Assembly (NCBI GenBank): GCA_024233835.1
Contig: JACKPC010000001.1
Span: 1,669,442 to 1,733,441, forward strand
Direction: 5' to 3'
Length of the DNA stretch: 64,000 nucleotides
Source of the DNA: Leptospiraceae bacterium
GTDB taxonomy: Bacteria; Spirochaetota; Leptospiria; Leptospirales; Leptospiraceae
Positions 2,481-63,670 of the stretch are shown one piece after another. Every line of letters starts with the position of its first letter. Position 1 is the stretch's first letter. The notes beneath the pieces were generated by a model. The model did no database searches. It was not told the DNA's origin and was given only the letters and a program-made list of their open reading frames with translations. A program made the position numbers and the translations under genes.

Positions 2481-2581
2481 ATGGTGGCTTGTTTGTCTAT
2501 TTGAGTATTCCAATATATTACCTGTTTCTTATTCCTTATCGCAATCAACATTGATGCTTATGGATATCCTCTCACTTCATA

Positions 2582-3345: not shown

Positions 3346-3429
3346 CACTCTATGGGATAAGTCTCAGACCTGTTGTTACAATGATTGTGCTTTTCTGTTT
3401 TTTACTGCAAGGATATTTTTAATAGGGAA

Positions 3430-4007: not shown

Positions 4008-4180
4008 TTATCTTGCATTATGGCAGTTATAATAGCCATTTTGCAAGGTAAAAGAGCGAAACTGTCTTTTCAGAGGGAAATAGGAAAACAAGAACTTTTT
4101 GGTTTTTTATTTCTATGACAATACTGACTCGCAGCATAACCATTTTTTAGCAAAATTTATAGTAAAAATTAATATTATCC

Positions 4181-5371
4181 TTGAAATTTCGGATGCCATG
4201 TTCCTATAATTCAAGTATTATGAAAATTGAACGGATTCATGAAAAGCAAAATATTGAAAAGCTATTTAAGATATTTCCAGCCGTTAGTATATTGGGTCCG
4301 AGACAATGCGGAAAAACGACTCTTGCCAGAGATTTTGGTGCCGATCACTTCTTTGATCTGGAAAATCCTACTGATTGGCAAATCATGGAAAACCCTGAAC
4401 TAAATCTTGGCATTTTGGAAGGAACCATTGCGATTGACGAAATCCAGAGAAAGCCAGATTTATTTCCCATTCTAAGACACCTGATAGATACAAAGCCCAA
4501 ACAAAAATATTTACTGTTAGGAAGTGCGTCACCTCTACTTATCAAACAAACTTCAGATTCTCTAGCAGGAAGAATTGGGTATCACTCCTTAGGAGGTTTT
4601 AACCCAAAAGATTTAGCACAAGAAGATTTAAAACAATTGTGGGTTCGAGGCGGTTTTCCAAGAGCTTTTTTAGCTGATAGTGATGATAGCTCTTTTTTAT
4701 GGAGGGAAAACTATATTCGAACCTTTTTAGAGAGAGACATACCTCAACTTGGCATTCAAATTCCGGCAAATACGATACGTAGGTTCTGGACAATGCTTTC
4801 TCATTACCATTCCCAAATTTTAAACTATTCAGAGTTTTCCCGTTCCTTTGGAGTTTCCGACAAGACCGTTCGCAATTATTTAGAAATACTCGAAGGAACA
4901 TTTATGGTCAGGGTTCTACAACCCTGGTATGAGAACATAGGCAAAAGGTTAACAAAGAAACCAAAACTTTATTTCACCGATTCAGGAATCTACCATTACT
5001 TTTCATCTCTACAGGATTGGAATGACGTTATTTCTTCACCCCGCCTTGGTGCTTCTTACGAGGGTTATGTGGTGGAAAACATCATTCGCATTTCTGGAAT
5101 ACCGGAGAGAAATTTCTACTATTGGAGAACCCATGCAGGTTCAGAACTGGATTTGTTCTGGCAATACAAAGGTAAAAACTATGGAGTAGAAATCAAATAC
5201 CTCGATGCTCCCAAAACCACCAAGTCCATGCACTCTGCACTAAAAGACTTAAATCTGGAAAAACTGTATGTTATCTACCCGGGAAATAAAAGCTATTTAT
5301 TGGCAGAAAAAATCATTGTTCTACCCTTCCATGAAGTTAATAAAGAGTTATGGTTTGTTTCAAATGTGTAA
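4181..5371 (+). CDS. AAA+ ATPase, AAA_14 N-terminal domain + DUF4143 C-terminal domain (COG1373-like)
   Basis: 396 aa with Walker A GPRQCGKTTL, Walker B-like IAIDEIQ, and a C-terminus ending WRTHAGSELDLFW (DUF4143 pattern). The start may be an internal Met (MKIERI...). Confidence 0.85.
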   Translation: MKFRMPCSYNSSIMKIERIHEKQNIEKLFKIFPAVSILGPRQCGKTTLARDFGADHFFDLENPTDWQIMENPELNLGILEGTIAIDEIQRKPDLFPILRHLIDTKPKQKYLLLGSASPLLIKQTSDSLAGRIGYHSLGGFNPKDLAQEDLKQLWVRGGFPRAFLADSDDSSFLWRENYIRTFLERDIPQLGIQIPANTIRRFWTMLSHYHSQILNYSEFSRSFGVSDKTVRNYLEILEGTFMVRVLQPWYENIGKRLTKKPKLYFTDSGIYHYFSSLQDWNDVISSPRLGASYEGYVVENIIRISGIPERNFYYWRTHAGSELDLFWQYKGKNYGVEIKYLDAPKTTKSMHSALKDLNLEKLYVIYPGNKSYLLAEKIIVLPFHEVNKELWFVSNV

Positions 5372-5420
5372 CAAGCGATTCTTTCTTAATTGATCGCTTT
5401 TTTATTTCCTTTAAATTAAC

Positions 5421-6278
5421 TCAAAAACATAAAATAAACCAATTGATTCGACCTGTACCAGAAGTTCCACCTGATATATTAGTTTTAAAACTGTTGGTAT
5501 CAATACTTTCTGAACCAACAATGTTAAACGGATTTGCTGAAGGATGGCCATTTGTTGCAAAGATCATTTGTAGTAAAGGACAATTGATATTTCTATTATG
5601 GGTTATAGTATTAAATGAATCAGGAGCAATTGTTATAACAGCACTACCAGAATATGCCAACTTTAAAGATCCGTTCACTTCAAGCTTAGCTGTTGGAGTA
5701 GTTGTTCCAATACCGACATTGCCGGTATCATGCTCCATAAATAAAACATTAGTCCAAGTTGTGTCAGCATGAAATGCAAAAATGAAATCTTCTTTCTCGG
5801 TAGTGAATTGAGAGTTGAATCCTCGGGCTGAAAAATGCCAGCCGTATTTACCATTTTCTGAAATTGGCACACCGCCTGTCGGCCGGGTAGCAAAATTCAA
5901 AGATGATTGTGACTCTATTTCAGTGTTGCTGTTTTCAATTTGTATCCCACCATGACCCTTAACATTAGCATCAATAACTAATTTGTACCCGGGACTTGCT
6001 GTCCCGATGCCCACATTGCCATCGTTAAAAACTGCGTCTGTTGTGGTAGTTCCCTTTGTCCAGTTCGGAATGCCCTCAAGTGCTGTTTTGATAGCCTGGA
6101 TACCGCTACCGATGTTATTCAACTCGGTGGATGTCAGGCTGGAACCGGAAGTCCAGTCGGTTTTTACACTGACATTATTTACAGCGATTGCCAGAAGGGA
6201 TACACTTAAAAATCCTGCGGTAATTCCTGAACTAATAGCGAAGCTTTTTATAAATAGAAGTTTAAATCTGCGTTTCAT
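5421..6278 (-). CDS. Secreted tail-fibre-like repeat protein, paralog B (285 aa, two GNVGIGT motifs, distinct central/C-terminal module)
   Basis: Same N-terminal 70 aa module as the paralogs. Motifs DGNVGIGTASPGYKL and TGNVGIGTTTPTAKLEVNG. The upstream leader is conserved. Confidence 0.6.
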   Translation of the reverse strand: MKRRFKLLFIKSFAISSGITAGFLSVSLLAIAVNNVSVKTDWTSGSSLTSTELNNIGSGIQAIKTALEGIPNWTKGTTTTDAVFNDGNVGIGTASPGYKLVIDANVKGHGGIQIENSNTEIESQSSLNFATRPTGGVPISENGKYGWHFSARGFNSQFTTEKEDFIFAFHADTTWTNVLFMEHDTGNVGIGTTTPTAKLEVNGSLKLAYSGSAVITIAPDSFNTITHNRNINCPLLQMIFATNGHPSANPFNIVGSESIDTNSFKTNISGGTSGTGRINWFILCF

Positions 6279-6351
6279 GTCCTTGTCCTTGTTTGTCTAT
6301 TTGAGTATTACTATATATTACCTGTTTTTAATTCCTTACATGTTTTTCTAT

Positions 6352-7056
6352 TTAAGGAGTAACACTGAACGATATACCATCCAGATTAATATGAGTAGCA
6401 GTAGTATTAGCTTTTAAATCAAGATACACCCCATTACTATAAACATTCAGTTTATGAGAAAAACCATCAGTAGTTCCATGTGCCGGAACGGAAAAAGATA
6501 TTGCTTTAGGAGGTAAATATTCGGAAGGCAGGTTAATGATCATTTCATTATTAGCCAGGGCAGTGGATTTCGTTGCTAAACCCCTGAGGTAAACAATGTC
6601 TCCAATTTTTCGATACTGACAGCGTTGCCAGCCGCTATCTATAGTGCTGAAATTGCTGTAACCAGTTCCGAAGGTTGTTACATCTGTCCAGGGTACATTC
6701 CATGATATATTGCCGTTCACATCCAACTTTTGTGCTGGACTACTTGTCCCAATACCCACATTGCCACCGTTAAAAACTGCATCTGTTGTAGTAGTTCCCT
6801 TTGTCCAATTCGGGATACTTTCCAGCAAGGTTTTTATAGTATTGATACCGTTACCGATGTTATTCATCTCGGTGGCTGTCAGGCTGGAACCGGAAGTCCA
6901 GTCGGTTTTTACTGTGACGTTATTTACAGCGATTGCCAGAAGGGATACACTTAAGAATCCTGCTGTAAGTCCTGCACTGATTGCGAAGCTTTTTAAAAAA
7001 AGTCTTACACTAATGGCGAAGCTTTTTATAAACAAAAGTTTAAATCTGCGTTTCAT
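6352..7056 (-). CDS. Secreted tail-fibre-like repeat protein, paralog C (234 aa)
   Basis: N-terminal module nearly identical to the other paralogs. GNVGIGTSSPAQKLDVNGNISWNVPW motif. C-terminal module CQYRKIGDIVYLRGL... as in paralog A. Confidence 0.6.
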   Translation of the reverse strand: MKRRFKLLFIKSFAISVRLFLKSFAISAGLTAGFLSVSLLAIAVNNVTVKTDWTSGSSLTATEMNNIGNGINTIKTLLESIPNWTKGTTTTDAVFNGGNVGIGTSSPAQKLDVNGNISWNVPWTDVTTFGTGYSNFSTIDSGWQRCQYRKIGDIVYLRGLATKSTALANNEMIINLPSEYLPPKAISFSVPAHGTTDGFSHKLNVYSNGVYLDLKANTTATHINLDGISFSVTP

Positions 7057-7258
7057 GTCCTTGTCCTTATTTGAGTATTTTATTATTTTTCTATAGTACC
7101 TATTTCTTATTCATTGTCCTGCTGCACCGACGACTGAAAGGAGGAGAGCACAGCGTGGAGTGAGTTCAAAAAAAAATTTCGTTCTTAGAATTCAGATAGG
7201 CTTTCCTCATTAATTATATTATATATTTGATTTTTTCAGATAAATTAGAATACATATC

Positions 7259-7828: not shown

Positions 7829-8327
7829 AATTATTCCTTAATTAATTAAAGTTTATCAATGGTTCGTTTTCGGAACGAAGTGAAGGAAACACAATCTTAT
7901 ACCCTCTATAATAAAAGAAAAAATCATATGTATCCAAATTTTAAAGTGTCTATCTTCACTTTACTTCAAAAAAAATTTTATATTTCATGTAAATATTTAT
8001 GTAGTAAATACTCGTATGTTGCTAAAAGACCGCACTCAGCACTACGTCATGTACGCTTGGGTGTATCGGAGTTTTACCACATTTTTATATCTTACCAACA
8101 CTTATTTTAAAAAGACAACAAAAAAAGGAAAAGCGAAAGTGAAAAATTACTTTACTAAACACTATGCAAAACTCCTATCTACCGCCCTCTCAGGAATTCA
8201 TGATTTTAAAAGAATATATCACACAAAAAAGACAGAGTGAGGGTGATTGTTAGATACCGATTTTTAGCCTGGAGAAAAAGGAAGATTTACTTGACTTAAA
8301 ATCCGCATAGTATCAAACTATCCACCT

Positions 8328-8613
8328 ATGAACAGTGATTGTTTGGAGCTTTATCTTCCCCTTACATACAGAGTGAGCGATGATGTCTTGCAGGCAATTC
8401 AGCGATTAAACCATGACCTCATTATTGACCTGAGAAAAGAAAACGGTATCGGGATCCGGGTTACAGAGGACTTATCCGAACAAAAATATATTGAGCTAAG
8501 ATTTCCCGAAGGATTCCTACCTGCCGAAAGCTTTGAGGAGCTTACAAGTAACAGAGACAGGCTGCATTTTGAACAAAAAGGGGGAGACGATTTTTATAAA
8601 AATGGGAACAATT
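8328..8613 (+). pseudogene. Truncated membrane-anchored Uma2-like paralog (N-terminal ~90 codons only), interrupted by an IS insertion and an upstream frameshift
   Basis: Nearly identical at protein and DNA level to the first ~90 codons of 11970..12728 (MNSDCLELYLPLTxRVSDDVLQAIQRLNHDLIID...). An extra G at ~8580 shifts the frame. Homology stops at ~8613, where IS sequence begins. Confidence 0.6.
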
Positions 8614-8743
8614 TACAGCAATTCCCGCTTTGCTTGTAACAGGCAGATAAGGCTAAGATTTTTGGGTTTGCAGGGAATGCTTTCGTAAACTTTTTCATCA
8701 AAAATCGCTTGTACCTGTACAGGGATATAGTCTTTTTGACTAT

Positions 8744-9442
8744 ATGTCAGGCAAAAACGAGTTACACGCACGGGTAGATTTATCAGCAGATGGACTTTAT
8801 CAAGCAATTCGGGAGGAATTTTCTAAAATTCCAGACCACAGGGTCAATCCTTCGATTTCTCTAACAGATGCTTTGATGTCAGCCTTTGCTATCTTTTTTC
8901 AAAAGAACGCATCACTTCTTGAGTTTGAAAGAGAAAAAGTGAAGAATAAAAATCTTCAAAGTATATACAAGATTCAAGAGATACCTTCTGACACTCAAAT
9001 GAGAGAAATTGTTGATGAAGTTTCAACAGGAGCTTTCAGGAAAATATATAAAAACCTTTTTTCAAAACTTCAGCGTGGCAAGGTTCTCGAATCTTATCGT
9101 GTCCTTGATGATTATTATATTCTTTCCGGAGACGGAACCGGATTCTTCTCTTCAGAGAAAATTCATTGTGAATGCTGTCTTATAAAGAATAATAAAAGTG
9201 GAACTCTTTACCAGCATATGATGTATGGTGCCTGTATTGTGCATCCGGATAAGAAAGAAGTTATCCCTCTTATGTTTGAACCTATTACAAACGAAGATGG
9301 GAAAACAAAAAATGATTGTGAGTTAAACGCTTCTAAACGATTTATTGAAGATTTTAGAAGAGAGCATCCTCATTTAAAAACAATATTTGTAGAGGATTCT
9401 CTGTTTTCAAATGCTCCCCACATTGAATTACTGAGAGTATAA
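8744..9442 (+). CDS. DDE transposase, N-terminal part (split ORF)
   Basis: 232 aa ending at TAA. It continues conceptually in the next ORF, which is in a different frame. Confidence 0.65.
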   Translation: MSGKNELHARVDLSADGLYQAIREEFSKIPDHRVNPSISLTDALMSAFAIFFQKNASLLEFEREKVKNKNLQSIYKIQEIPSDTQMREIVDEVSTGAFRKIYKNLFSKLQRGKVLESYRVLDDYYILSGDGTGFFSSEKIHCECCLIKNNKSGTLYQHMMYGACIVHPDKKEVIPLMFEPITNEDGKTKNDCELNASKRFIEDFRREHPHLKTIFVEDSLFSNAPHIELLRV

Positions 9443-9464
9443 GCAAGTTGATAAGAAAGAGCAT

Positions 9465-9863
9465 ATGATTGCTTTTAGCTGGGTTACAGATATTGAAATT
9501 ACAAAAGAAAATGCTTATGAATTGATGCGAATCGCGAGAGCACGATGGAAGATAGAAAATGAAACCTTCAATACTCTAAAAAATCAGGGTTATCACTTTG
9601 AACATAATTATGGACATGGCAGTAAGGATTTGTCTAATAACTTTGCAACTCTTATGATACTTGCTTTTCTTGTAGATCAGATCCAACAATCAAGCTGTGC
9701 ATTATTCCGAAAAGCACTTGGGACTTTTCATGCAAAAAGATTGTTCTGGCAAAAGATAAGAAGCTTATTTGAAATATTTGAATTTTCATCTATGGAAGAG
9801 CTATTCCAGGCCATTGCTTATGGATTTAAAGCAAATATTTCTATAGGACAAAATTCATCATAG
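9465..9863 (+). CDS. DDE transposase, C-terminal part with the ARARWKIENETFNTLK motif (the YxxRWxIExxF signature of IS4/IS5-type transposases)
   Basis: 132 aa. It is separated from the N-terminal part by a stop and a frame change, so it is either inactivated or a sequencing frameshift. Confidence 0.65.
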   Translation: MIAFSWVTDIEITKENAYELMRIARARWKIENETFNTLKNQGYHFEHNYGHGSKDLSNNFATLMILAFLVDQIQQSSCALFRKALGTFHAKRLFWQKIRSLFEIFEFSSMEELFQAIAYGFKANISIGQNSS

Positions 9864-10755: not shown

Positions 10756-10810
10756 TATGAAACGCTTACATTCTGCTATCGATTATGTTGCCCCTTACGA
10801 CGTGATAAAC
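10756..10810 (+). pseudogene. Tiny remnant of an IS3-family transposase C-terminus (KRLHSAIDYVAPYDV)
   Basis: The motif resembles the conserved IS3 OrfB C-terminal ...HSSLGYLSP.E.. signature. Only about 18 codons are recognisable. Confidence 0.3.
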
Positions 10811-11054
10811 TGTAAACGAGAGAGAATACTTTCTGAAAGAAGAGAGAAGCTAAAGTTGGGTAAAGAGAAGAGAAAGCAATTTTTTCAGACAAGCCCTAAA
10901 AAGAAAGGGTCTTGTCTTACTCAAATCCCGTAATGGGAGTTTTAAGAAAGTGCAGTTTTGTAAATTTGCACTGCGACTTTATGCGAAAATACTATTACTT
11001 GTTTAAATTTTTACCCACCTTATTTCGGGACTAAAAAAGTCCGGTTTTGAAAGA

Positions 11055-11102: not shown

Positions 11103-11870
11103 ATGGAAACAGAGTGTGTTGAACTGCAAATTCCCCGGCAGTATAGGCTTACAGATGAAGTAATCAAAATCCTGCAAATTCTAAACCATGACTTAATCAT
11201 AGATTTTGTAAAAGAAAATGGTGTGATTATAAAGCCAAAAACCCCGGAATTTGCAGGCCAGAAATACATCGATCTGAAGTTTCCTGAGGACTTTTTTCAT
11301 CCGGAAAACTTCGATGAACTTTATGAAGCCAATGAGCACCGGTTTCGGTTTGAACGGGTAGGGGAGACGATACGAATAAAAATGGGTTTTGGAAGTATAA
11401 TTGGTTTAATCACAGCAGCGATTGTTAGCTCCCTTTACATCTGGGCAAAAAAGACAAAGTCAGGAAGAGTGCGTTCAGATCAATCCGAATTTGAGTTTTA
11501 TAATGAAGAAACAGAAAGCCTTGAAAAAAGAATTCCCGATGTTTCTTATATTAGTTTTGAAAAGGTAAATGAAAAGGAACAAAAATCATGGGGCACAGGA
11601 AAGATTAAAGTTGCACCTACTCTGAGTATTGAAATAGTTTCTTCCAAATATGGCCTGAAGCCCGCTCTCTGGAAAATGCAACATGTATGGATGCAGTTCG
11701 GAACTGATATTGGAGTTGTAGTCTGTCCCTTTTCGAAAAAGCTGTACATTTTTGAGAAAGGTAAATCGAACCATATAGAACAAAGCATTTATCACAAGTT
11801 TACCCATACCCTCCTTCCCGACTATGAAGGTGATTTCAGCGAATATGTAGATGAAATAAGTGAATCCTGA
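11103..11870 (+). CDS. Membrane-anchored Uma2-family (PD-(D/E)XK-like) protein, paralog 1 (255 aa)
   Basis: N-terminal ~95 aa domain, one predicted TM helix (IIGLITAAIVSSLYIWA), and a C-terminal region with Uma2-like motifs (VSYISF...APTLSIEIVSSKYGLKPALWKMQ..MQFGTDIGVVVCPFSKKLYIF). Confidence 0.6.
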   Translation: METECVELQIPRQYRLTDEVIKILQILNHDLIIDFVKENGVIIKPKTPEFAGQKYIDLKFPEDFFHPENFDELYEANEHRFRFERVGETIRIKMGFGSIIGLITAAIVSSLYIWAKKTKSGRVRSDQSEFEFYNEETESLEKRIPDVSYISFEKVNEKEQKSWGTGKIKVAPTLSIEIVSSKYGLKPALWKMQHVWMQFGTDIGVVVCPFSKKLYIFEKGKSNHIEQSIYHKFTHTLLPDYEGDFSEYVDEISES

Positions 11871-11969
11871 GACTTGTATCTTAGGGATTAGGATGTGCTC
11901 AGGTTAAAGCCGGTTTTGAAAGATGAAAAAGCTTGACTATAAATTCGCATAGTATCAAACTATCCACCT

Positions 11970-12728
11970 ATGAACAGTGATTGTTTGGAGCTTTATCTTC
12001 CCCTTACATGCAGAGTGAGCGATGATGTCTTGCAGGCAATTCAACGATTAAACCATGACCTCATTATTGACCTGAGAAAAGAAAACGGTATCGGGATCCG
12101 GGTTACAGATGATTTATCCGAACAAAAATATATTGAGCTAAGATTTCCCGAAGGATTCATTCCTGCCGAAAACTTTGAGGAGCTTACAAGTAACAGAGAT
12201 AAGCTGTACTTTGAACAAAAAGGGGAGACGATTTTTATAAAAATGGGAACGATTTATACAATTGGTTTAATTACTATGGCAATCGGAGCCTCCCTGTACA
12301 TGTGGGCCAAAAAAAATAAAACCGGTAGAGTTTTACCCGAAAATTCTACCTATCAGTTGAGCGATTCTAAAACCGGTAAAACCGAAATCAGGATGGCAGA
12401 TATTTCCTATATCAGTTATGGGAAAGCTTCCGAGTCGGAGCAAAAAAAATGGGGGAAAAATTGTCCCATCGCTCCTACACTCAGCATTGAAATAGTTTCT
12501 TCCAAATATGGCCTGAAGCCCGCTCTCTGGAAAATGCAATATGTATGGATGCAGTTCGGAACTGATATTGGAGTTGTAGTCTGTCCCTTTTCGAAAAAGC
12601 TGTACATTTTTGAGAAAGGTAAATCGAACCATATAGAACAAAGCATTTATCACAAGTTTACCCATACCCTCCTTCCCGACTATGAAGGTGATTTCAGCGA
12701 ATATGTAGATGAAATAAGTGAATCCTGA
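11970..12728 (+). CDS. Membrane-anchored Uma2-family protein, paralog 2 (252 aa)
   Basis: Same architecture as paralog 1. The last ~245 nt are identical to paralog 1 apart from one substitution, while the 5' two-thirds are diverged. Confidence 0.6.
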   Translation: MNSDCLELYLPLTCRVSDDVLQAIQRLNHDLIIDLRKENGIGIRVTDDLSEQKYIELRFPEGFIPAENFEELTSNRDKLYFEQKGETIFIKMGTIYTIGLITMAIGASLYMWAKKNKTGRVLPENSTYQLSDSKTGKTEIRMADISYISYGKASESEQKKWGKNCPIAPTLSIEIVSSKYGLKPALWKMQYVWMQFGTDIGVVVCPFSKKLYIFEKGKSNHIEQSIYHKFTHTLLPDYEGDFSEYVDEISES

Positions 12729-53067: not shown

Positions 53068-55428
53068 TCAAGGTCCGTAGCGAACACAACGGACATTGTT
53101 GAGATAATAGGTCTTAGTGTAGTTGTCGACAGAGCCATTGAGGAAGTAGACGTACCATGCGGAGAGGTCAGAAGAAATGAGGCCACTCGCCGACCAATAG
53201 CCGGACAAAATTGTATTAGGAAAGAAAATTCCATTAATTTTTGCTCCTGTATCTTCGTTCTCTCCGGATAAATCTATCAATGTCTTTAATTCTTCAATTG
53301 TAGGTACCCGCCAACCTGTTTTCCCGGCAAAACCACCTGTTGGATTTGTATTCAAATCATTACAGGAGTTATATGCTGTACTGGAACCATCGTTCAGAAA
53401 TGTACCCAGAATTCCCGTATTGTTTCCTCCATTGCAGTCATTATCCATCTCATTGCAATAATAATATGTTCCTGCGTTTCCATCACAAGCATTTGTATTA
53501 TTATTCCATGTCTGTCCCTGACTACACTTCTTCCATATCAGTCCTGTGCTTTTGTCATAGATTGTGCCATCGCCATTATCAACATACCAGGTCTTTGCTT
53601 CCATATAAGGATCACAGGATATTACAATATTGGATACATTAGAAGTTATAGTTCCGCTTGCATTAAGAACAGTACAGGTCTGATCGGTAGGGTTTGTTTT
53701 TACTGTTACTGCATAGAAAGTATTGTAATTGATATTAGTTGCAAAGGTAAAGTTACCATTGGAATTTAAAGTCAATTCGTTTCCACTGTTCAGTTGCAAT
53801 ACAATGCTTTTAGAACTTCCCATACCCGATAATTCCCCTCCTATAGTATAATTTGTGGTTACACAACTTACGCTGACATTGGAGACATTGGCTGTAGCTG
53901 TTCCGATTCCATTGGAAAGTGTACAGGTCTGACCGGCAGGCTGGGTTTTGATGGTTACGTTATACAAATACGCTACTGATTTAGAAAAGGTAAAGTTGCC
54001 ATCGGCATTTATGCTTAGCTCATCTCCTCCGTTGTTCTGTAGTACCAACATTCCACTGAGTCCTGTTACTGTGCCTCCGATGGTAAAACTCTGGCAACTC
54101 ACGCTTACATTTGTAACATTAGTAATAGCAGTTCCACTAGCATTGCTAACTGTACATGTCTGCCCGGTGGGCTGGGTTTTCACTGTTACACTATAATCAC
54201 CCGCAACATCTGTGGAAAATTTAAAACTACCATTAGAAGTGATAGTTATATCATCTCCACCATTCTTTTGTAATACAAGAGTACCGCTCAATCCGCTTAC
54301 TGTTCCTGCCACAGTATAGGTAACAAGTCTGCCTGTGGTAAAACTGTAGGTTTTATTTTCGCCCAGAGAGTTTCCTGCCAGATCCTTTATTGTGCCAAGA
54401 ATAGTGATGCGGTGCTTCGTACTGGTGCGAAAGCTTTCATTCACTCGAAAGATTAGAGTCTTTTCTTCTCCGCTGACAGTTCCCGGAACATTTTTACTAT
54501 TTTCATTTTTATCAATCTCTACTATAGATAAGGATTGAGTATTCAAAGTAGTTATATCAATTGCTTCTGAGAAAATTAAAGTTATAAGAGTATTATTCGA
54601 CACATTCGTTGAGCCATCTGTCGGAATCACAGTTTCCACAACAGGTGGAGAGTTGTCTAAAATATCGTTGGTAGTAAAACTTATGTTTGTTGCTGTCGCA
54701 AGAGAATTACCGGCAAGGTCTTTGATTCCTGTTTGAATGAAAATTGTATAATTTGTCCAGGAGGAAAAGATGGCGGATGGTTTAAGCTGCACGACACTGC
54801 CGATAAACTCTAATTCTTTTTCTAATATAGTGTCTCCCTGTTTTAAGATAATAGTTTCATTACTCACCGTATCCGGATCTAAAGCCTCATTGAATACCAA
54901 TTGGATAGATGTATTTCTAACTATCTCAGAGGAAGAATTTGCCGGATAGCTGGTTTTTATAGAAGGAGATTCGTTATCTATATTATTATTGGTGGTGAAA
55001 TATATGAGTTCTTCGACCGGATTTTCCTGTGTATTACCCTCTAAATCCCGGACATTGTTCATAAATTTGACTGTGTGTTTTGTGTTTGCCGTATAGTATT
55101 CGGAAGGTGTAAACTTCAGGGTATTTTTAGAAATGCTAACAGTTCCTTGAATTTCTTTACCACCTGCATCATAGACCTAGAGGGTAGTTTCATTGGCAGA
55201 AGTGGAAATAAGGTTTTCATCATACACAATTAAAAAGGAGCGATTGCGGGCTATGTCGGTCTCGTAATTATAAGGTGTGGTATAGTTTACCTCGGGTGGA
55301 GTTTTATCCTTTTGTAACCAGAGATAATGCAAAAACAAACCGGGTGAGGGTTCAAAAGGATTATTGAAGTTTATCCCCGGAGTACAGGAAGAAAGAAAAA
55401 TAAGAAGTAGAATTACCAACCATTTCAT
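53068..55428 (-). pseudogene. Lipoprotein with SbsA-type Ig-like domains and a C-terminal DUF1566 (Lcl-C) domain, split by one in-frame TAG at 55174-55176
   Basis: The 55177..55428 ORF (signal peptide + lipobox, homologous to the N-terminus of 57998..60079) and the 53068..55062 ORF are in the same frame, separated by a single TAG. C-terminus KTWYVDN.DGTIYDKSTGLIW..CSQGQTW...WRVPT..EL..L...YWS (DUF1566). Confidence 0.6.
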
Positions 55429-55446
55429 GATGAGAGTCCGATATCT

Positions 55447-55475
55447 ATGATATGCTTTTTCATTTAATAAAGCAA
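55447..55475 (-). promoter_or_regulatory. Putative sigma70-type promoter of the lipoprotein gene (minus strand TTGCTT-N17-TATCAT)
   Basis: The same block is conserved upstream of the three lipoprotein gene copies/remnants (55429-55505, 60080-60135, 61277-61350). Confidence 0.3.
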
Positions 55476-55526
55476 GAATAAAAATATAGTTTACAGCAAT
55501 TATGAACAGTTTAGGCTACTACTAAG

Positions 55527-56285
55527 ATGAAACCGCCGGAAGAAAAAGAGACCTATCACCTAATTTTCCCCGAACAATACCCGCTACCTCCTCGCATTCA
55601 GGAACTTTCGAGGCTCAATACCGAACTAAGTTTATCGTATCAAGAAAATACATTGATTATCCGGGAAGCTCCCCCCTACGCCTTTCGAGACTATGAAAAC
55701 TTTCTTTTACGCCTTCCGGGTTTTACTGAAGAACTATTCTTTCAACTCGAAGAACTGAACGATGAAACACATTTTGAATTTGATGATAACGAGGAGGTCA
55801 TTGTTAAAATGTCTACTTTTGCATTAATAAGTTTATTAACAGGTGCTGTTTTAACTTCCCTTTTTATCTGGGCAAAGTCCAGAAAGAGCGGCAGGGTGTA
55901 CACAGAAGACGGAGGCTATATGCTCGAAAGCCCGAACGGAAAACATCTTCATAGAATGGCGGATATTTCTTATATAGCCTACAGTAAAGCTTCCCCGGAA
56001 GAACAGGCTAGCTGGTATTCCCGCATTCCCATAGCTCCGAGTCTTGCGGTTGAAGTTGTATCGGCTAAAAGAGGTTTAAAACCGGCACTGAAAAAAATGA
56101 AAGATATCTGGATGGCAAACGGCACTGAACTCGGGCTTGTTATCTGTCCTTTCAGTAAGAAAATCTATATATTTGAAATATCTAAAGAATCCTATACCGA
56201 ACAGAGTATATTCGAGGATTTCACCCATCCCGACCTCCCCGGCTACAAAGAAAACTTCAGCGAATATGTAGAAAAGATAAAATAG
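55527..56285 (+). CDS. Membrane-anchored Uma2-family (PD-(D/E)XK-like) protein, paralog 3
   Basis: Same architecture as 11103/11970: N-terminal domain, TM helix (FALISLLTGAVLTSLFIWA), and C-terminal ADISYIAY...APSLAVEVVSAKRGLKPALKKM...GTELGLVICPFSKKIYIFE. Confidence 0.6.
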   Translation: MKPPEEKETYHLIFPEQYPLPPRIQELSRLNTELSLSYQENTLIIREAPPYAFRDYENFLLRLPGFTEELFFQLEELNDETHFEFDDNEEVIVKMSTFALISLLTGAVLTSLFIWAKSRKSGRVYTEDGGYMLESPNGKHLHRMADISYIAYSKASPEEQASWYSRIPIAPSLAVEVVSAKRGLKPALKKMKDIWMANGTELGLVICPFSKKIYIFEISKESYTEQSIFEDFTHPDLPGYKENFSEYVEKIK

Positions 56286-56363
56286 CTCTAAAACCTAAAA
56301 CCGCTTGAAATATAGAATCCGGGAATAGTTAGTTTCATAATTATAAGGCGTGCTAAAGTTTAC

Positions 56364-56680
56364 CTACGGTGGTGTTTTGTCAGTCTGCAACCAGAGGTAG
56401 TGTAAGAGAAGACCGGGTGAGGGTTCAAAGACATTATTGTAGTTTATTTCTCCAAGGCAGGAGAAGAGTAAAAGAGTTACTATAGACAAGAACTTTTTCA
56501 TATAATTATACACAATTTCACATAATTCCATATTGAATATACATAAGTTTTTCGAACATCTCAAGTGTTTTTTTCTTTTTCATCTTTTTTAGTAAGATAT
56601 CCATCAGTATATATTACCTTTCACGCACTACAGTTCGGAGCGAACACAACGAACGTAGTTGCAGTTTGTTTCGTTTTTTA
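56364..56680 (-). pseudogene. Deletion remnant of a DUF1566 lipoprotein gene (N-terminal 60 codons plus the last ~10 codons; ~2 kb of interior missing)
   Basis: The 56364..56564 ORF retains the signal peptide and FEPSPGLLLHYLWLQTDKTPP. 56620-56680 retains the ...NYVRCVRSEL* 3' end, similar to the ends of the intact copies. Confidence 0.5.
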
Positions 56681-56709
56681 ATTTGGATAATTCCAAAGTT
56701 GGAGGAAAA

Positions 56710-57888
56710 TCAAATAGTTTCTAATTCTTTTGTTTTAATAATTGAATCAATAATTATCTTCTTTTTTGCTTGGAATTTTTCAAAAAGAACTTTCTGTTTT
56801 TCATTCAACTCGGTACCATATTTTGCTTCTATTAATATTCTATCTTCAGTAAGAAAATCCAGTTCTACTTCTTCCTGTAAATAATATATTTTACTTTTAT
56901 TTCTTATTAGAAGATAAATATAATTTTCAAAATAACTTCCTAAGTCTCTTTCTCCATGGAATAAAAACTTTATACCGAGATCACTTGCATAAACCTTCTT
57001 TGGACTCAATATTTTTTCATTTGTTTTTCCCCATCTTGATACAAGATGAATAAGGTATGTTGCTTCAAAATAAGACAGATAGCGTCTCGAAGTATCAGGA
57101 GAAATTTTTAATATTTTTGCTATTTTATTTATACTGATCTGTTTTCCACTTCTTTCCATCAACAAAGAAAAGTAGTCACGCATAACGTCACTATTTTTTA
57201 AACCGTAAAAAGCCGTTATGTCTTTTTGAATAATATCTTCTACAAGTCCCATCAAATATTGTCTTTCGGGATAATTAATATTTTCTGGCATTCCTCCTAT
57301 TTTAATGTAATCTTTGAAATAGGAATCTAAAAGAGAAGCATCTCTTTTTTTGACTGAGATTCCTTTAAAATCCAGGAATTCAAAAAAGTCCAGGGGTTGT
57401 ACTTCAAATACTGTAGTTCTACCTGTTAAATTTGCTCTTTTATCTTTAAGAAGAGAACTTGAAGAAGACGTAGCAATGATTTTTAAATTTTCTTTATCAA
57501 ATAAGTTTTTAAGCTGAATTTCATATTCATTTTTATATGTGATTTCATCAAAAAAAAGATAAGACTTTTCTTCAGATTTAATTTTGCATATTTTTCTATA
57601 TAAAGTGAGAATCTCGTGGATTGAGTTATTCTTAAATAAATAATCATCCATACTGATATAAAAAATATTTTTAGGTTTAATTCCTTTTTTTAAAAGATGG
57701 TGGATCATCAATTTCATGAGACTTGTTTTTCCCACCCGCCTGAGACCTGTAAGAAAAAGGATTCTATTTTCATTCAACCAGAATGGGAACTTTTCCTTAA
57801 GGCTTTTCCTATTCCACAATTCTATCTTAAAATCATTTTCCCACCACGGATTATAAGAATAAAGCGATTCTTCCATTTGAACAACCAT
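56710..57888 (-). CDS. AAA+ ATPase, AAA_14 + DUF4143 family
   Basis: 392 aa with Walker A GLRRVGKTSL, Walker B FFDEI and a DUF4143 C-terminus. Very AT-rich. Confidence 0.85.
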   Translation of the reverse strand: MVVQMEESLYSYNPWWENDFKIELWNRKSLKEKFPFWLNENRILFLTGLRRVGKTSLMKLMIHHLLKKGIKPKNIFYISMDDYLFKNNSIHEILTLYRKICKIKSEEKSYLFFDEITYKNEYEIQLKNLFDKENLKIIATSSSSSLLKDKRANLTGRTTVFEVQPLDFFEFLDFKGISVKKRDASLLDSYFKDYIKIGGMPENINYPERQYLMGLVEDIIQKDITAFYGLKNSDVMRDYFSLLMERSGKQISINKIAKILKISPDTSRRYLSYFEATYLIHLVSRWGKTNEKILSPKKVYASDLGIKFLFHGERDLGSYFENYIYLLIRNKSKIYYLQEEVELDFLTEDRILIEAKYGTELNEKQKVLFEKFQAKKKIIIDSIIKTKELETI

Positions 57889-57997: not shown

Positions 57998-60079
57998 CTA
58001 CGGTCCGGATACACAACGTACATAGCCGTCAAAGGTCTTAGAGACGCTGTGGACATAGCCAGTAACGAAACCGACGAGCAACGCGCTCGTAGTATTAGGC
58101 GCATAGGTAGTAGAACTCCAATAAAAGCCAGCAATGGTATTTGGAAATAAATTTCCATTGTTCAAAGCCCCTGTTGAAGAATAATTTTGTCCTGATAGAT
58201 CCAATAGAGTCTCCAACTCAGTAACAGAAGGAACTCTCCAATTGGTTCTTCCGGCAAATCCAGCAGGGGGATTAGAATTCAAATTATTGCATTGTGTGTA
58301 AGCTTCGCTTGTCCCGGTTCCATTTAAAGTATAGGGAGGATTTCCCGATGCATCAGAGTTACAACTATTATTATTAACGTCACAATATCGATATTTTACT
58401 GCAGTTCCATCACAACTATTTGTGTTTTCATTCCATGTCTGTCCCTGGCTACACTTTAGCCAGATTAGTCCCGTACTTTTATCATAGATTGTTCCATCTT
58501 TATTATCCACATACCAGGTCTTGGATTCCATATAGGGATTACATGACACCGTAATATTAGAGACGTTAGCAGTTGCTGTTCCTGTTGCATTGAGAATGGT
58601 ACATGTTTGAGTGGAAGGGTTTGTTTTTACAGTTACTGCATATGAATTATTATAATTGATGTTTGTTCCAAAAGTAAAACTTCCATTGGAATTTAAAGTT
58701 AAATCACTACCACTATTCAGTTGTAAAACAATATTTTTTCCACTCCCCATTCCTGAAAGATTCCCGCTGATAGGAAAAGCCGATGTAACACAACTCACGC
58801 TTATATTGCTCACATTTGCAGAGGCTGTACCATTGCCATTGCTAACTGTACATGTCTGTCCCGTGGGTTGTGTTTTTGCAGTCACACTATAATAACTTGA
58901 TACACCGGTGGTAAATGTAAGACTTCCATCGGATGTAAGAGTCAATTCATCTCCACCGTTATTTTGTAATATTAGAGTTCCACTCAATCCGCTGACAGTT
59001 CCACCAACCGTATAGGTGACAAGTCTGCCTGTGGTAAAATTATAAGTTTTATTGGTCCCCATGGCATTGCCGGACAGGTCTTTTATCGTACCCATAAGGG
59101 TGATTTGGTGTTTGGTACTCGTTCGAAAACTTTCATTCACACGAAAGATAAGACTCCTGCCTTCTCCACTTACAGCACCCGGTACTTTTTTGATACTTCC
59201 ATCTTCAAATATTTCTTCTATATAAAAAGAAGAGGTATTCAAAGTATTCACATCTATAGCCTCGGAAAAATTTACCGTTATAAGAGTATTATTCGACACA
59301 TTCGTTGAACCATCCGCCGGAATCACCGTTTCTATTACCGGGGGAGTTCTGTCCGAGGTATCTGTTGTGGTAAAACTGATTGTTTGTTCAGACGCCAGAG
59401 CATTGCCGGACAGATCCTTTATCCCGGTGGTAATCAATAATGCATATGTAGTGTTGGGTTGAAACCCAACAACAGGTTGAAACCCAACACCGGGCTTAGG
59501 AAGTTGTATCTGTACCACAGAGCCATAAGAGGAAATCTCTGTCTCAATGACAGTGTCTCCCTGTTTCAGTATAAAAGTATCCGTACTCGCATTCAGAGGA
59601 GTGCTGGTTTTTAAAATAGGAGGCTCTGTGTCTATATCATTACCCGTGGTAAAGTAAAAAACATCTTCCTTGAACACAGGCTGCACATTCCCCGCTAAAT
59701 CTTTCACGCTCTTTTGCAGCTTTACCGTATGTAAGCTATTCGCTGCATAGTATTCCGTCGGTATGAATTTTAGAGTATTCCTATTTACTTCTAATTTGCC
59801 CGGAACCTGAGTCGTAGCATGAAAAACCTGTAAAGTGTTTTCCTTCACAGACTCAGAAAGAATGGGTTCATCATATACTATTAATATAGAACGATTCCGG
59901 GAATAGTTAGTTTCGTAATTATAAGGTGTTGTATAGTTTACCTCGGGTGGAGTTTTATCCTTTTGTAACCAGAGATAATGCAAAAACAAACCGGGTGAGG
60001 GTTCAAAAGGATTATTAAAGTTTATCCCCGGAGCGCAGGAGGTAAAGAAAATTAGAAGTAGGTATACCAACCGTTTCAT
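57998..60079 (-). CDS. Lipoprotein with SbsA-type Ig-like domains and a C-terminal DUF1566 (Lcl-C) domain (intact, 693 aa)
   Basis: Lipobox LIFFTSCAPG. Ig-like PPVIETVIPADGSTNVSNNTLITVNFSEAID. C-terminus KTWYVDNKDGTIYDKSTGLIWLKCSQGQTW...WRVPSVTELETLLDL..YWSS. Confidence 0.7.
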   Translation of the reverse strand: MKRLVYLLLIFFTSCAPGINFNNPFEPSPGLFLHYLWLQKDKTPPEVNYTTPYNYETNYSRNRSILIVYDEPILSESVKENTLQVFHATTQVPGKLEVNRNTLKFIPTEYYAANSLHTVKLQKSVKDLAGNVQPVFKEDVFYFTTGNDIDTEPPILKTSTPLNASTDTFILKQGDTVIETEISSYGSVVQIQLPKPGVGFQPVVGFQPNTTYALLITTGIKDLSGNALASEQTISFTTTDTSDRTPPVIETVIPADGSTNVSNNTLITVNFSEAIDVNTLNTSSFYIEEIFEDGSIKKVPGAVSGEGRSLIFRVNESFRTSTKHQITLMGTIKDLSGNAMGTNKTYNFTTGRLVTYTVGGTVSGLSGTLILQNNGGDELTLTSDGSLTFTTGVSSYYSVTAKTQPTGQTCTVSNGNGTASANVSNISVSCVTSAFPISGNLSGMGSGKNIVLQLNSGSDLTLNSNGSFTFGTNINYNNSYAVTVKTNPSTQTCTILNATGTATANVSNITVSCNPYMESKTWYVDNKDGTIYDKSTGLIWLKCSQGQTWNENTNSCDGTAVKYRYCDVNNNSCNSDASGNPPYTLNGTGTSEAYTQCNNLNSNPPAGFAGRTNWRVPSVTELETLLDLSGQNYSSTGALNNGNLFPNTIAGFYWSSTTYAPNTTSALLVGFVTGYVHSVSKTFDGYVRCVSGP

Positions 60080-60179
60080 GATGAGAGCCCGATATTTATA
60101 ATATACTTTTTTAATAAATAAGGCAAGAGAAAATTAATCTTTATGAAGAAAAACTCTTTCTTTTTAAATATACTTTCTC

Positions 60180-60208
60180 TTGACAGACTCTCAACAATTA
60201 CGTAAAAT
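60180..60208 (+). promoter_or_regulatory. Near-consensus sigma70 promoter TTGACA-N17-TAAAAT, about 24 nt upstream of the Uma2-like gene
   Basis: Read directly from the sequence: ttgaca gactctcaacaattacg taaaat. Confidence 0.45.
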
Positions 60209-60231
60209 GGAAAAATTAAATGGGAACTGAG

Positions 60232-60990
60232 ATGAAACCGCCGGAAGAAAAAGAGACCTATCACCTAATTTTCCCCGAACAATACCCGCTGCCTCCTCGC
60301 ATTCAGGAACTTTCGAGGCTCAATACCGAACTAAGTTTATCGTATCAAGAAAATACATTGATTATCCGGGAAGCTCCCCCCTACGCCTTTCGAGACTATG
60401 AAAATTTTCTTTTACGCCTTCCGGGTTTTACTGAAGAACTATTCTTTCAACTCGAAGAACTGAACGATGAAACACATTTTGAATTTGATGATAAAGAGGA
60501 GGTCATTGTTAAAATGTCTACTTTTGCATTAATAAGTTTATTAACAGGTGCTGTTTTAACTTCCCTTTTTATCTGGGCAAAGTCCAGAAAGAGCGGCAGG
60601 GTATACACAGAAGACGGAGGCTATATGCTCGAAAGCCCGGACGGAAAACATCTTCATAGAATGGCGGATATTTCTTATATAGCCTACAGTAAAGCTTCAC
60701 AGGAAGAACAGGCTAGCTGGTATTCCCGCATTCCCATAGCTCCGAGTCTTGCGGTTGAAATTGTCTCTGCTAAAAGAGGTTTAAAACCGGCACTGAAAAA
60801 AATGAAAGATATCTGGATGGCAAACGGCACTGAACTCGGGTTTGTTATCTGTCCCTTTAGTAAGAAAATCTATATATTTGAAATATCTAAAGAATCCTAT
60901 ACCGAACAGAGTATATTCGAGGATTTCACCCATCCCGACCTCCCCGGCTACAAAGAAAACTTCAGTGAATATGCAAAAAAGATAAAGTAG
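60232..60990 (+). CDS. Membrane-anchored Uma2-family protein, paralog 4 (near-identical to 55527..56285)
   Basis: Only about five amino-acid differences from paralog 3. The start is taken at MKPPEEKE. Confidence 0.6.
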   Translation: MKPPEEKETYHLIFPEQYPLPPRIQELSRLNTELSLSYQENTLIIREAPPYAFRDYENFLLRLPGFTEELFFQLEELNDETHFEFDDKEEVIVKMSTFALISLLTGAVLTSLFIWAKSRKSGRVYTEDGGYMLESPDGKHLHRMADISYIAYSKASQEEQASWYSRIPIAPSLAVEIVSAKRGLKPALKKMKDIWMANGTELGFVICPFSKKIYIFEISKESYTEQSIFEDFTHPDLPGYKENFSEYAKKIK

Positions 60991-61276
60991 TTCTAAAAAT
61001 AACCAAAATCACCTGTACACCAACGTCGCCAGAGCATTCCCCGCCAGATCCTTTATCCCTGTTTTAAGATAAGCTTATCCGCTGTAAGCGTTTCCGGGAA
61101 TAGTTGGTTTCGTAATTATAAGGACTGGTAAAATTTACATCTGGTGGGGTTTTGTCCCTTTGCAACCACAGGTAATGCAAAAAAAGACCGGGCATGGGCT
61201 CGAAGAGGTTATTGTAATTTACGCTTCCAATGCAGGAAGAAAGAAAAATGAGAAGTAGAAATACCAGTCGTTTCAT
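60991..61276 (-). pseudogene. Deletion remnant of a third DUF1566 lipoprotein gene (N-terminal ~55 codons plus short interior pieces)
   Basis: The 61064..61276 ORF has a signal peptide, lipobox and FEPMPGLFLHYLWLQRDKTPPDVNFTSPYNYETNYSR. 61020-61060 matches an interior segment (cattccccgccagatcctttatccc). The conserved promoter block lies upstream. Confidence 0.45.
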
Positions 61277-61373
61277 GATGAGAATCCGATATTTATGATA
61301 TGCTTTTTTATGTAATAAAGCAAGAATAAAATATAGTTTACAGCAATAGAGGATTGCTTACACTGATTCTTAC

Positions 61374-62897
61374 ATGGCACGACCTCGTTATTTCAATACC
61401 TCCGGTCCGAATATTCCGGAGGAGCATTATACCCTGTTCCGTCCTGCTTTAATGGCAAAAGGTCGTGATATGGTTGAGAGAAGCCGTTATTTCACCATCT
61501 GGGCACCAAGACAAACCGGAAAAAGCACCTATTTTCGTCTTCTGGCAAAGGAGCTGGAAAAAGATGATTATAAAGTCTGTCATATTAATTTTGAGAACTA
61601 TATGAATGCCAGTCTGGAGTCTTTTTTAAAAACATTTGTTCAGGAAATAAACCAAAATTGGGGAACAAATATATCTTTAACGGAGATTTCAGATATAATC
61701 CAACAGTTAAAGGGGATTGCAGATAAAAAACTTGTTCTGATTATTGATGAAGTCGAAGGAATTAATTCTGAATTTTTTAATGAATTTTTACATTCCATTC
61801 GTAATGCTTATCATTCTCGTAATAACCATTCCTTAAAATCCGTAATCCTTGTCGGAGTTTCGAATATCACAGGAATCATACAGGACAATGCCAGTCCTTT
61901 TAACATTGCTGATGATTTGAGTTTATCATATTTTTCTAATGAAGAAACCGTTGAACTTTTAGAGCAACATGAAACAGAAACCGGTCAAATTTTCTCCGAT
62001 GAAGTAAAACAAAAAATAATCGGTATGACAGCCAACCAGCCGGGTCTTGTGAATGGCTTTGCCTATAAACTGGTTGAGCTTTGTCCGGGCAAAAAAGAAA
62101 TCACTTTAGACGACTATTTTACAATTGAAGAATGGTATCTTACAGAAGCGATTGATAAGAATGTGAGTAATATAATCAATAAATCTAAAAAATATAGAAA
62201 GTTTGTTGAAGAGCTTTTGTTTACCGAAACTAAAATCCCCTTCAAAATCGATAGACCTGCAATATTAGAATTATATATAAACGGAATTATTAAAAAAGAC
62301 GATACCGGCAATATTGAGTTCTGGGTTCCTCTTTATAAAAACAGGTTGTTAAATGCTTTTTTTCCCTATTCGAATGGGGAAAGTGAACGTATTGCCCGGA
62401 ACATGCTCTCAACAGCTTATCTTAACGAAGATGGAAAAATTAACTTTAAGAAATTAATCGATAGCTATAAAGAACACATCTCTCTTCGTAGCTTTCGGCC
62501 TTTCCGGGAAAAAGATGAAGAGGGAAAATTTGTTTCCATTCCGGAAGCTGCGATGATCTATAGCTTTGAAACCTTTATCAGTATCTTCATCCGTGAACTC
62601 GATGGTAAAATTTATCGTGAAGGATTTGTATCTCTCGGCAACACCGATATGATTATCAATGTTGAAGGCCATGAGTATCTGTTGGAATTAAAAAAATACT
62701 ACAGCCCCTCCTATTTTAAAAAAGGTAAAAAACAACTCGCCTACTACTGCAAACGAGCAGGATTAACGGAAGGTCATTATATCATTTATGTAGACAACCG
62801 GACAAAACCGGAGTTCGTTTCGGAAGAACCGGAAGTTATTGAGAGTATTACTATATACTCTTATCTTATCTGGTATGATGAAGAGAAAGACTTTTGA
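61374..62897 (+). CDS. AAA-type ATPase fused to a C-terminal PD-(D/E)XK nuclease-like domain
   Basis: 507 aa. N-terminal RYFNTSGP...YFTIWAPRQTGKSTYF (Walker A) and LIIDEVE (Walker B). C-terminal GNTDMIINVEGHEYLLELKKY (D...E.K core). Confidence 0.6.
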   Translation: MARPRYFNTSGPNIPEEHYTLFRPALMAKGRDMVERSRYFTIWAPRQTGKSTYFRLLAKELEKDDYKVCHINFENYMNASLESFLKTFVQEINQNWGTNISLTEISDIIQQLKGIADKKLVLIIDEVEGINSEFFNEFLHSIRNAYHSRNNHSLKSVILVGVSNITGIIQDNASPFNIADDLSLSYFSNEETVELLEQHETETGQIFSDEVKQKIIGMTANQPGLVNGFAYKLVELCPGKKEITLDDYFTIEEWYLTEAIDKNVSNIINKSKKYRKFVEELLFTETKIPFKIDRPAILELYINGIIKKDDTGNIEFWVPLYKNRLLNAFFPYSNGESERIARNMLSTAYLNEDGKINFKKLIDSYKEHISLRSFRPFREKDEEGKFVSIPEAAMIYSFETFISIFIRELDGKIYREGFVSLGNTDMIINVEGHEYLLELKKYYSPSYFKKGKKQLAYYCKRAGLTEGHYIIYVDNRTKPEFVSEEPEVIESITIYSYLIWYDEEKDF

Positions 62898-62965: not shown

Positions 62966-63670
62966 TCACTCAAACAATTTTTCTACATTTTGCCAGGGCA
63001 TGATATTTACTTCATTTTGTATTTTTTCTTCATCCCCTCCATAGATAAGAAATTTGTTTGTTATCTGTAATTCTGTTTTAGAATAATACTTTAAGTTTTT
63101 AAAGAAATCAGAAGTTATCGTTGAAGCTGATTTTACTTCACATAAATCTACGAAAATCCCTTTATCGATAAGGAAGTCTATTTCATGACCTTTTTTATCT
63201 CGTAGGAAATATACATCTTCTTTATTACCCCTGTTGTATTGGGTTTTTAAGATTTCAGAAAAAACAAGAGTTTCAAAAATAGCTCCTTTTAAAGGATGAG
63301 AAAAAATTTGTTCAAAACTTTTAATACCCAGAAGATAACAGACAAGGCCGGTATCTAAAAAAAATAATTTTGGTGCTTTTATTAACCTCTTATTTATATT
63401 TTTAAAATAAGGGCGAATTAGCTTGATAAGAAAGCTGGCTTCCAGAACATGAATCCATGATTTAATTGTGTTATGATTTACACCACAGGATGTGCCTATC
63501 TCATTCATATTGAGTAATTGGCCTGTCCTTCCGGCAAGAGATTGGCTTACATTCTGCATCAGTTCAAATTGGCAAACATCCGGGTTTTCCAGACTTACAT
63601 ATTTTTTGTGAGGAAAAAGGATTTTGCATAATGTCGTTTTACCGGACTGCCTGGGGCCGGTTATGGTCAA
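62966..63670 (-). CDS. DUF4143-family ATPase, short form (234 aa, TTG start; upstream in-frame homology is interrupted by stops)
   Basis: Walker A GPRQSGKTTL at residue 5 and a DUF4143-like C-terminus (VYFLRDKKGHEIDFLIDKG). The upstream in-frame sequence still reads ...PKNCKQYPI before reaching stop codons. Confidence 0.55.
   Translation of the reverse strand: MTITGPRQSGKTTLCKILFPHKKYVSLENPDVCQFELMQNVSQSLAGRTGQLLNMNEIGTSCGVNHNTIKSWIHVLEASFLIKLIRPYFKNINKRLIKAPKLFFLDTGLVCYLLGIKSFEQIFSHPLKGAIFETLVFSEILKTQYNRGNKEDVYFLRDKKGHEIDFLIDKGIFVDLCEVKSASTITSDFFKNLKYYSKTELQITNKFLIYGGDEEKIQNEVNIMPWQNVEKLFE

Follow-up and report, generated by a model that had tools for sequence, protein, structure and literature searches.

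The closest described relatives of the gene considered here belong to the Uma2 family (COG4636/DUF820, Pfam PF05685), whose structural prototype is Tt1808 of Thermus thermophilus (PDB 1wdj), a protein of 187 amino acids (aa). The family has a 'PD-EXX-K' variant of the PD-(D/E)XK active site in which the lysine has moved to the following helix, the site of Tt1808 reading S-PD-EXR-K with R118 and K130, and in cyanobacteria its genes are multi-copy and scattered over the genome (Feder and Bujnicki 2005, PMC551604). Further solved Uma2 proteins, 6okh from Leptospira borgpetersenii, 3ot2 from Anabaena variabilis (Ava_3926) and 9y1l from Leptospirillum ferriphilum, were crystallised as soluble proteins of ~180-190 aa and have no known function. 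To our knowledge, the function of the family is still not established 20 years after its first structure, and we know of no Uma2 member for which metal-dependent nuclease activity has been demonstrated experimentally. As a case study, we considered 64,000 nucleotides (nt) of the Leptospiraceae bacterium assembly GCA_024233835.1 (contig JACKPC010000001.1, positions 1,669,442 to 1,733,441 of the forward strand; hereafter the window), in which a gene encoding a Uma2 protein of 252 aa lies at 55527..56285 (+).

A preliminary description of this gene had proposed a Uma2-like module anchored in the membrane, with a hydrophobic helix of 20 residues separating Uma2 motifs in the C-terminal ~90 aa from an N-terminal domain of ~95 aa. 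We estimate instead at about three in four the probability that this gene and its paralogues in the window encode soluble, cytoplasmic, putative PD-(D/E)XK nucleases of a long form of the Uma2/COG4636/DUF820 family, and that the apparent transmembrane segment is helix alpha1 of the nuclease core; this helix was most likely misread as a membrane anchor. The four intact genes are bona fide Uma2 members, already so named in public annotation.

The assignment to Uma2 and to the PD-(D/E)XK group, which had been made from the letters alone, is borne out by the Pfam match, by the similarity to 1wdj and by the invariance of three active-site residues (D146, E176 and K190). PF05685 matches the 55527 protein with 45 bits over aa 69-234 (profile positions 2-157 of 172), and the four full copies all exceed its gathering cut-off of 27 (45.1, 41.4, 40.5 and 28.7 bits), with matches running from aa 67/69 to aa 234/239. 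Using phmmer, the 55527 protein recovers 1wdj with an E-value of 3e-5; a protein 98% identical to it (P0001) carries the NCBI name 'Uma2 family endonuclease', and a scan of the 55527 protein against NCBIfam gave no match. The motifs quoted in the preliminary description, ADISYI (aa 145-150), APSLAVEVVSAK (aa 170-181) and GTELGLVICPFSKKIYIF (aa 199-216), are indeed present, as they are in the other Uma2 copies of the window, but Uma2 homology is not confined to the C-terminal part: in the Pfam alignment it begins ~30 residues N-terminal of the hydrophobic helix and continues through it, in all four full copies. The helix is therefore not a linker between an unknown N-terminal domain and a C-terminal Uma2 remnant, and it does not divide the protein in two.

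The 55527 gene can accordingly be partitioned along the Uma2 fold. An N-terminal extension (aa 1-63, 55527..55715, +), which the model described below and hhalign suggest is a probable duplicate of the Uma2 N-terminal helix and beta-hairpin subdomain, precedes the canonical subdomain itself (aa 64-95, 55716..55811, +), which contains the invariant E84 and the start of the Pfam match (aa 69 corresponding to profile position 2). These two elements replace the separate N-terminal domain of ~95 aa that had been supposed. They are followed by the hydrophobic helix alpha1 of the PD-(D/E)XK core (aa 96-118, 55812..55880, +), delimited by its hydropathy, by the model and by alignment with Tt1808, and read earlier as a transmembrane anchor. 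The catalytic core of the PD-EXX-K variant (55881..56282, +), assigned by phmmer alignment to 1wdj with the motif as given in PMC551604, contains the active-site codons of D146 (55962-55964), E176 (56052-56054) and K190 (56094-56096), all on the + strand.

An AlphaFold2 model of the 55527 protein, built on an alignment of 15 sequences, forms one compact body (mean predicted local distance difference test score, pLDDT, 87.1; predicted template modelling score, pTM, 0.83), in which the helix covers aa 99-118, preceded by a hairpin (strands 82-86 and 90-94) and followed by strands within aa 122-151, so that elements of a single predicted globular fold flank the hydrophobic helix on both sides. 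The model superposes on 179 of the 186 residues of Tt1808 at 2.2 Å, with a PD-(D/E)XK core and an N-terminal subdomain as in Tt1808. The hydrophobic helix aligns with Tt1808 alpha1 (SPTGGESGRRSLQLAYQLARWNE), which ends in the same invariant tryptophan (W115 = W59). A profile of the short forms of the family also matches Tt1808, with an E-value of 6.5e-47, and aligns alpha1 as SPTGGESGRRSLQLAYQLARWNEERG; this helix of Tt1808 is polar (GESGRRSLQLAYQLARW), with a mean Kyte-Doolittle (KD) hydropathy of -1.08 in both cases, as against +2.05 in the 55527 protein. A comparison with Uma2 structures by Foldseek, which had been suggested as a check, matched 6okh, 3ot2 and 9y1l at a TM-score (target) of ~0.8 and E-values of 2e-10 to 2e-9. 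These three proteins are short forms that lack the extension and share 15-18% identity with the 55527 protein, and Tt1808 likewise has no extra N-terminal module and is ~20% identical overall. In these structural comparisons a predicted model, guided by family information, is matched to experimental structures.

The active-site layout is also that of Tt1808. The phmmer alignment to 1wdj equates D146 with D86, E176 with E116, V178 with R118 and K190 with K130, giving the PD-EXX-K arrangement with Asp on beta2, Glu on beta3 and Lys on the next helix; the residue at the EXR position, Arg in Tt1808, is Val in the long-form subfamily (E-V-V). D146, E176 and K190 are invariant in 15 homologues, among which identity falls as low as 42%, and E84, in the hairpin N-terminal of the helix, is invariant in long and short forms alike (corresponding to the invariant E34 of the latter). 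The His/Ser/Thr that the family has at the start of alpha1 could correspond either to S102, a position taken by Ser or Gly in the subfamily, or to the invariant T105, the register between long and short forms being ambiguous by one residue. By this layout D146 and E176 would bind the metal and K190, on the next helix, would supply the displaced lysine of the PD-EXX-K variant in a putative Mg2+-dependent cleavage of nucleic-acid phosphodiester, with a probable contribution from E84 of the N-terminal subdomain. Residues of one fold that are conserved and probably functional thus occur on either side of the helix, which is incompatible with a bilayer lying between them.

On simple criteria, the earlier reading of this segment as a transmembrane helix was reasonable. 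Residues 98-116 (FALISLLTGAVLTSLFIWA) have a 19-residue KD mean (KD19) of 2.05, where 1.6 is the threshold for a transmembrane-like segment; on the Wimley-White octanol scale they sum to -10.4 kcal/mol and on the Hessa scale to -0.8, and their hydrophobic moment is 0.08. A hydrophobic segment of 19-21 residues that passes naive transmembrane thresholds is present in all Uma2 copies of the window, and 15 of 15 close homologues exceed a KD of 1.6 and also pass the Wimley-White thresholds. Simple hydrophobicity scales alone would call aa 98-116 a transmembrane helix, and given such values a positive call by a dedicated topology predictor might plausibly be expected, although it would not be decisive alone.

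These values are what one would expect of a single-pass membrane protein in which helix 96-116 spans the bilayer, with the acidic N-terminal part of ~95 aa outside and a truncated Uma2-like nuclease module inside. The charge distribution fits such an N-out/C-in topology, as aa 1-95 carry a net charge of -13 and the helix is followed directly by KSRKSGR, and the hydrophobicity is kept in 23 of 37 long forms of the family. We nevertheless consider this topology very unlikely. A membrane-spanning segment should lie outside globular domains, with flanks free to occupy opposite sides of the bilayer, whereas this helix lies within the PF05685 match and aligns with alpha1 of the soluble Tt1808, and in the model superposed on 1wdj the hairpin of aa 82-94 (with E84) and the later strands form one domain that leaves no room for a bilayer. 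Its uncharged character is not conserved either: at least one D, E, K or R occurs within aa 98-114 in 15 of the 37 long forms. As an example, P0012 (46% identical overall, E-value 3e-99 to the profile) has a helix reading FRLIGKLTAKILTSLVNWA, in which R, K and K at positions i, i+4 and i+8 form a narrow exposed stripe equivalent to A99, L103 and A107 of the window protein; its gene lies on a contig of 1.2 kb, too short for gene context. Furthermore, the protein has, as read from its sequence, no signal peptide to export the 95-aa N-terminal part, and membrane or secretion partner genes were absent from ~14 related loci. What stands of the proposed anchor is thus the segment itself, which is real, conserved and helical, but not its anchoring role.

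The hydrophobicity of the helix is better described in terms of a subfamily. An exhaustive profile search returned 544 relatives. Of their cluster representatives (at 50% identity), ~35-40 are long forms, 240-262 aa in length, whose match extends over the entire profile; the remaining relatives are of the canonical length of 190-210 aa and match from profile position ~55-70 on, again through the helix. The long form occurs in Spirochaetota and Bacteroidota. In the short forms (n = 79) the helix region is polar in all but one, with the consensus PTGGETGxxNxEIxxQLxxWNKK, and a KD of at least 1.6 over positions 98-116 is found in 1 of 79 short forms as against 23 of 37 long ones. The switch from polar to apolar is centred on positions 100, 101, 103, 104 and 107. 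In a common hmmalign register both forms share an invariant W115 and have apolar residues at positions 108 and 112. The hydrophobicity of the helix thus tracks the presence of the extension, which suggests burial rather than membrane insertion.

The extension that distinguishes the long form comprises ~63 aa and is probably a duplication of the N-terminal helix and hairpin subdomain. Its modelled pattern (helix 24-30, strands 34-39 and 42-47, pLDDT 92-95) mirrors that of the canonical subdomain (helix 68-77, strands 82-86 and 90-94), and hhalign aligns aa 15-62 with aa 64-107 at a probability of 72% and an E-value of 3e-5 when the whole core is used, or 90% and 1.6e-6 with aa 64-120; scanned alone against Pfam, the N-terminal 65 aa gave no match. 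We suggest that the outer face of alpha1, normally polar, turned apolar as the subfamily gained this extension, and that alpha1 would still pack on the beta-sheet, its apolar face being most likely covered by the extension or by a subunit interface. A long-form subfamily with a probably duplicated N-terminal subdomain and a correlated apolar alpha1 is mildly new; we found no prior description of it.

The apolar stripe of alpha1 (A99, L103, A107, T110, I114) might also remain exposed on an intact Uma2 fold and serve peripheral (monotopic) membrane binding, contact with a hydrophobic ligand or partner, or homo-oligomerisation. All faces of the helix are apolar, as its low hydrophobic moment indicates, a small-xxx-small pattern (S102-G106-T110) can be read from its sequence, and some long forms combine the extension with a polar helix, so that an apolar helix is not strictly required. 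An exposed stripe nonetheless appears unlikely to us: the pTM of 0.83 and the high pLDDT of the extension indicate that it is docked on the core, its presence correlates strongly with the hydrophobicity of the helix, and gene neighbourhoods give no pointer to the membrane. The more specific possibility that the long forms are membrane-associated nucleases, with the apolar alpha1, alone or together with the duplicated module, inserting into or lying on the inner membrane, is quite improbable in our judgement. If true, this would tether a PD-(D/E)XK nuclease to the cell envelope, where it could for instance encounter phage or conjugative DNA entering the cell, and its membrane association would be the first clue to localisation or function for the Uma2 family.

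Several points weigh against a soluble Uma2 protein with alpha1 buried in its core. The evidence on the fold comes from a predicted model derived from only 15 sequences, and the model is less confident where the helix begins (pLDDT averaging 71 over aa 91-100 and 85 over aa 101-110). The transmembrane-like values on simple scales (KD19, octanol sum and low moment) are kept in most close relatives, and the basic cluster C-terminal of the helix is combined with an acidic N-terminal part. Burial of the helix by the extension is something that we infer, as are the nuclease and defence roles, and some long forms have the extension and yet a polar helix. Our literature search turned up no Uma2 member with a demonstrated activity or role, and the gene contexts of the relatives, described below, are heterogeneous and include housekeeping neighbours.

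The preliminary description had counted five copies in the window, and tblastn with the window's own copies confirmed exactly four full copies and one fragment (E-values 1e-54 to 1e-171). The copy at 60232..60990 (+), for which a mechanical open reading frame (ORF) call starts from an upstream ATG at 60220, is a near-identical paralogue of 55527 (97% at the amino acid and 99% at the nucleotide level; Pfam Uma2 at aa 69-234). The copies at 11103..11870 (+; 255 aa, 43% identical to 55527, Pfam Uma2 at aa 68-239) and 11970..12728 (+; 252 aa, recognised by tblastn and Pfam) form a tandem pair sharing 66% amino acid identity, with 43-46% between this pair and the other one. The fifth copy, at 8328..8639 (+; tblastn match to ~8620), is a truncated and frameshifted fragment of a copy close to 11970, positions 8290-8583 being 95% identical to 11932-12225, the 5' part of the 11970 copy; it is cut by an insertion sequence (IS) at 8744-9863 (+). 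An expansion of this kind is in keeping with the family, of which a multi-copy state is a hallmark (PMC551604). In being multi-copy and in having the PD-EXX-K variant the window resembles the genome-scattered cyanobacterial expansions of COG4636, from which it differs by its Leptospiraceae host, its modest copy number and its long-form copies visibly homogenised by gene conversion.

This homogenisation can be followed in both pairs. In 11103/11970, the first 165 codons show saturation at synonymous sites, whereas the synonymous divergence (dS) is 0.11 over the last 88 codons, corresponding to a 3' patch of 268 nt at 97% identity, a mosaic expected of gene conversion. The 55527 and 60232 copies lie one in each of two duplicated units of 4.7 kb. 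Each unit starts with a minus-strand lipoprotein gene (Big_5 + Lcl_C, DUF1566), continues with the Uma2 gene and the orphan 5' end of a lipoprotein gene, and closes with an ATPase gene. Between the two Uma2 ORFs identity is 99%, over a block whose limits are precisely the start and stop codons, and the 5' coding end of the lipoprotein gene lies in another patch, ~130 nt long, of ~99% identity (window 55060-56720 compared with 59720-61380); both look like gene-conversion patches. Because the 99% block coincides with the ORF, a mobile 'homing' cassette was considered and rejected. Gene conversion acting on a tandem duplication of greater age was preferred to it, since the flanking DNA, although homologous, has diverged (76-82% identity between the lipoprotein genes of the two units), a second ~99% patch exists and the same mosaic is seen in 11103/11970. 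The five copies are best explained by tandem duplication, by the segmental duplication of 4.7 kb and by gene conversion, and purifying selection maintains them.

Since one copy is IS-truncated and frameshifted, with broken lipoprotein genes and ATPase fragments in the vicinity, the copies might alternatively be decaying pseudogenes or inactive domesticated relics, spread by mobile DNA and without a function of their own. This appears highly improbable and pseudogene status was rejected: four ORFs are intact, the ratio of non-synonymous to synonymous divergence (dN/dS) among the paralogues is 0.18-0.29 (0.18 for 55527 versus 60232, at a dS of 0.066), which indicates purifying selection, the catalytic residues are invariant across the 15 homologues mentioned above, and the family is kept across two phyla.

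The claim that each copy lies next to mobile or decaying DNA holds in broad terms. The IS that truncates the 8328 copy encodes a DDE_Tnp_1-type transposase split into two ORFs. Beside 55527, the signal peptide of the lipoprotein gene is encoded in an ORF of 83 aa (55177-55428, -) distinct from the main ORF of 664 aa (53068-55062, -), which has none; together they probably represent a frameshifted pseudogene. Just downstream of each Uma2 copy of the duplicated units (56364-56564 and ~61014-61313, -) are orphan Big_5 + Lcl_C 5' ends, recognisable by a lipoprotein signal peptide followed by PFEPSPGL(F/L)LHYLWLQ. A short ORF at 10757-10933 (+) resembles, by eye only, a C-terminal remnant of a transposase.

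The association with DUF1566 lipoproteins, which had been put forward for testing, proved to be a local one. Using tblastn with the lipoprotein and both ATPases, no homologue was found nearby in any of 10 related loci from other genomes (metagenome-assembled genomes, MAGs, of Bacteroidales, Cytophagales, Bacteroidota, Spirochaetota and Acetofilamentum), and a DUF1566/Lcl_C link as a family trait was rejected. The lipoprotein/ATPase arrangement recurs only in L015, which is the corresponding locus of a nearly identical Leptospiraceae MAG, and the co-occurrence reflects the duplicated unit of 4.7 kb.

The contexts of the other relatives are varied. L014:519-7172 is a type I restriction-modification locus in which a long-form Uma2 gene separates hsdM from a short fragment of hsdS (Methylase_S); the other end of this locus has another hsdS. 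In L002:3965-8716 and L012:6001-10566, on unrelated contigs, a gene encoding an SNF2-family helicase of ~1250-1280 aa follows a long-form Uma2 gene directly and on the same strand, and the C-terminal halves of the two helicases are 35% identical (E-value 1.5e-72), so that Uma2 and the SNF2 helicase may form a recurrent gene pair. In L012 the helicase gene is followed by a PDDEXK_2 gene. Elsewhere the Uma2 gene is beside a PIN toxin (L009), in a tandem pair (L001) or next to housekeeping genes.

In the window itself, the AAA_14 + DUF4143 ATPase near Uma2 matches the PADLOC candidate PDC-S01 (E-value 3.8e-71); PDC systems are candidate, not validated, defences. The ATPase genes at 56710-57888 (-), 62966-63670 (-) and 61374-62897 (+) encode this AAA_14 + DUF4143 protein, a truncated paralogue and an AAA_35 ATPase. 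The ATPase genes of the window weakly suggest a defence-island-like region. A known defence system for the Uma2 genes was considered and dropped: PADLOC gave no match for the 55527 copy, and the 11103 copy matches PDC-S03 over its catalytic core (aa 103-234) at an E-value of 6.7e-5, which falls far short of membership. The biological role would be that of a nuclease that acts on DNA and belongs to variable or defence-type genomic islands; this is the weakest step of the mechanism envisaged here. The recurrence beside restriction-modification genes, SNF2 helicases and candidate defence ATPases gives a weak hint of a Uma2 role in defence or mobile-DNA conflict. With the copies read as soluble long-form Uma2 proteins, what the window contains is a multi-copy gene family of an ordinary kind, with one modest structural peculiarity and little import for biology at large. 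It also illustrates neatly how simple transmembrane criteria would miscall a helix of the core as a membrane anchor, which calls for caution in architecture-based screens.

At the other end of the window (300-7120), the repeat families D2, D5 and D10 mark three paralogous ORFs on the minus strand whose function is not assigned. These ORFs, at 2582-3274, 5421-6278 and 6352-7056 (-), are 73-89% identical in parts.
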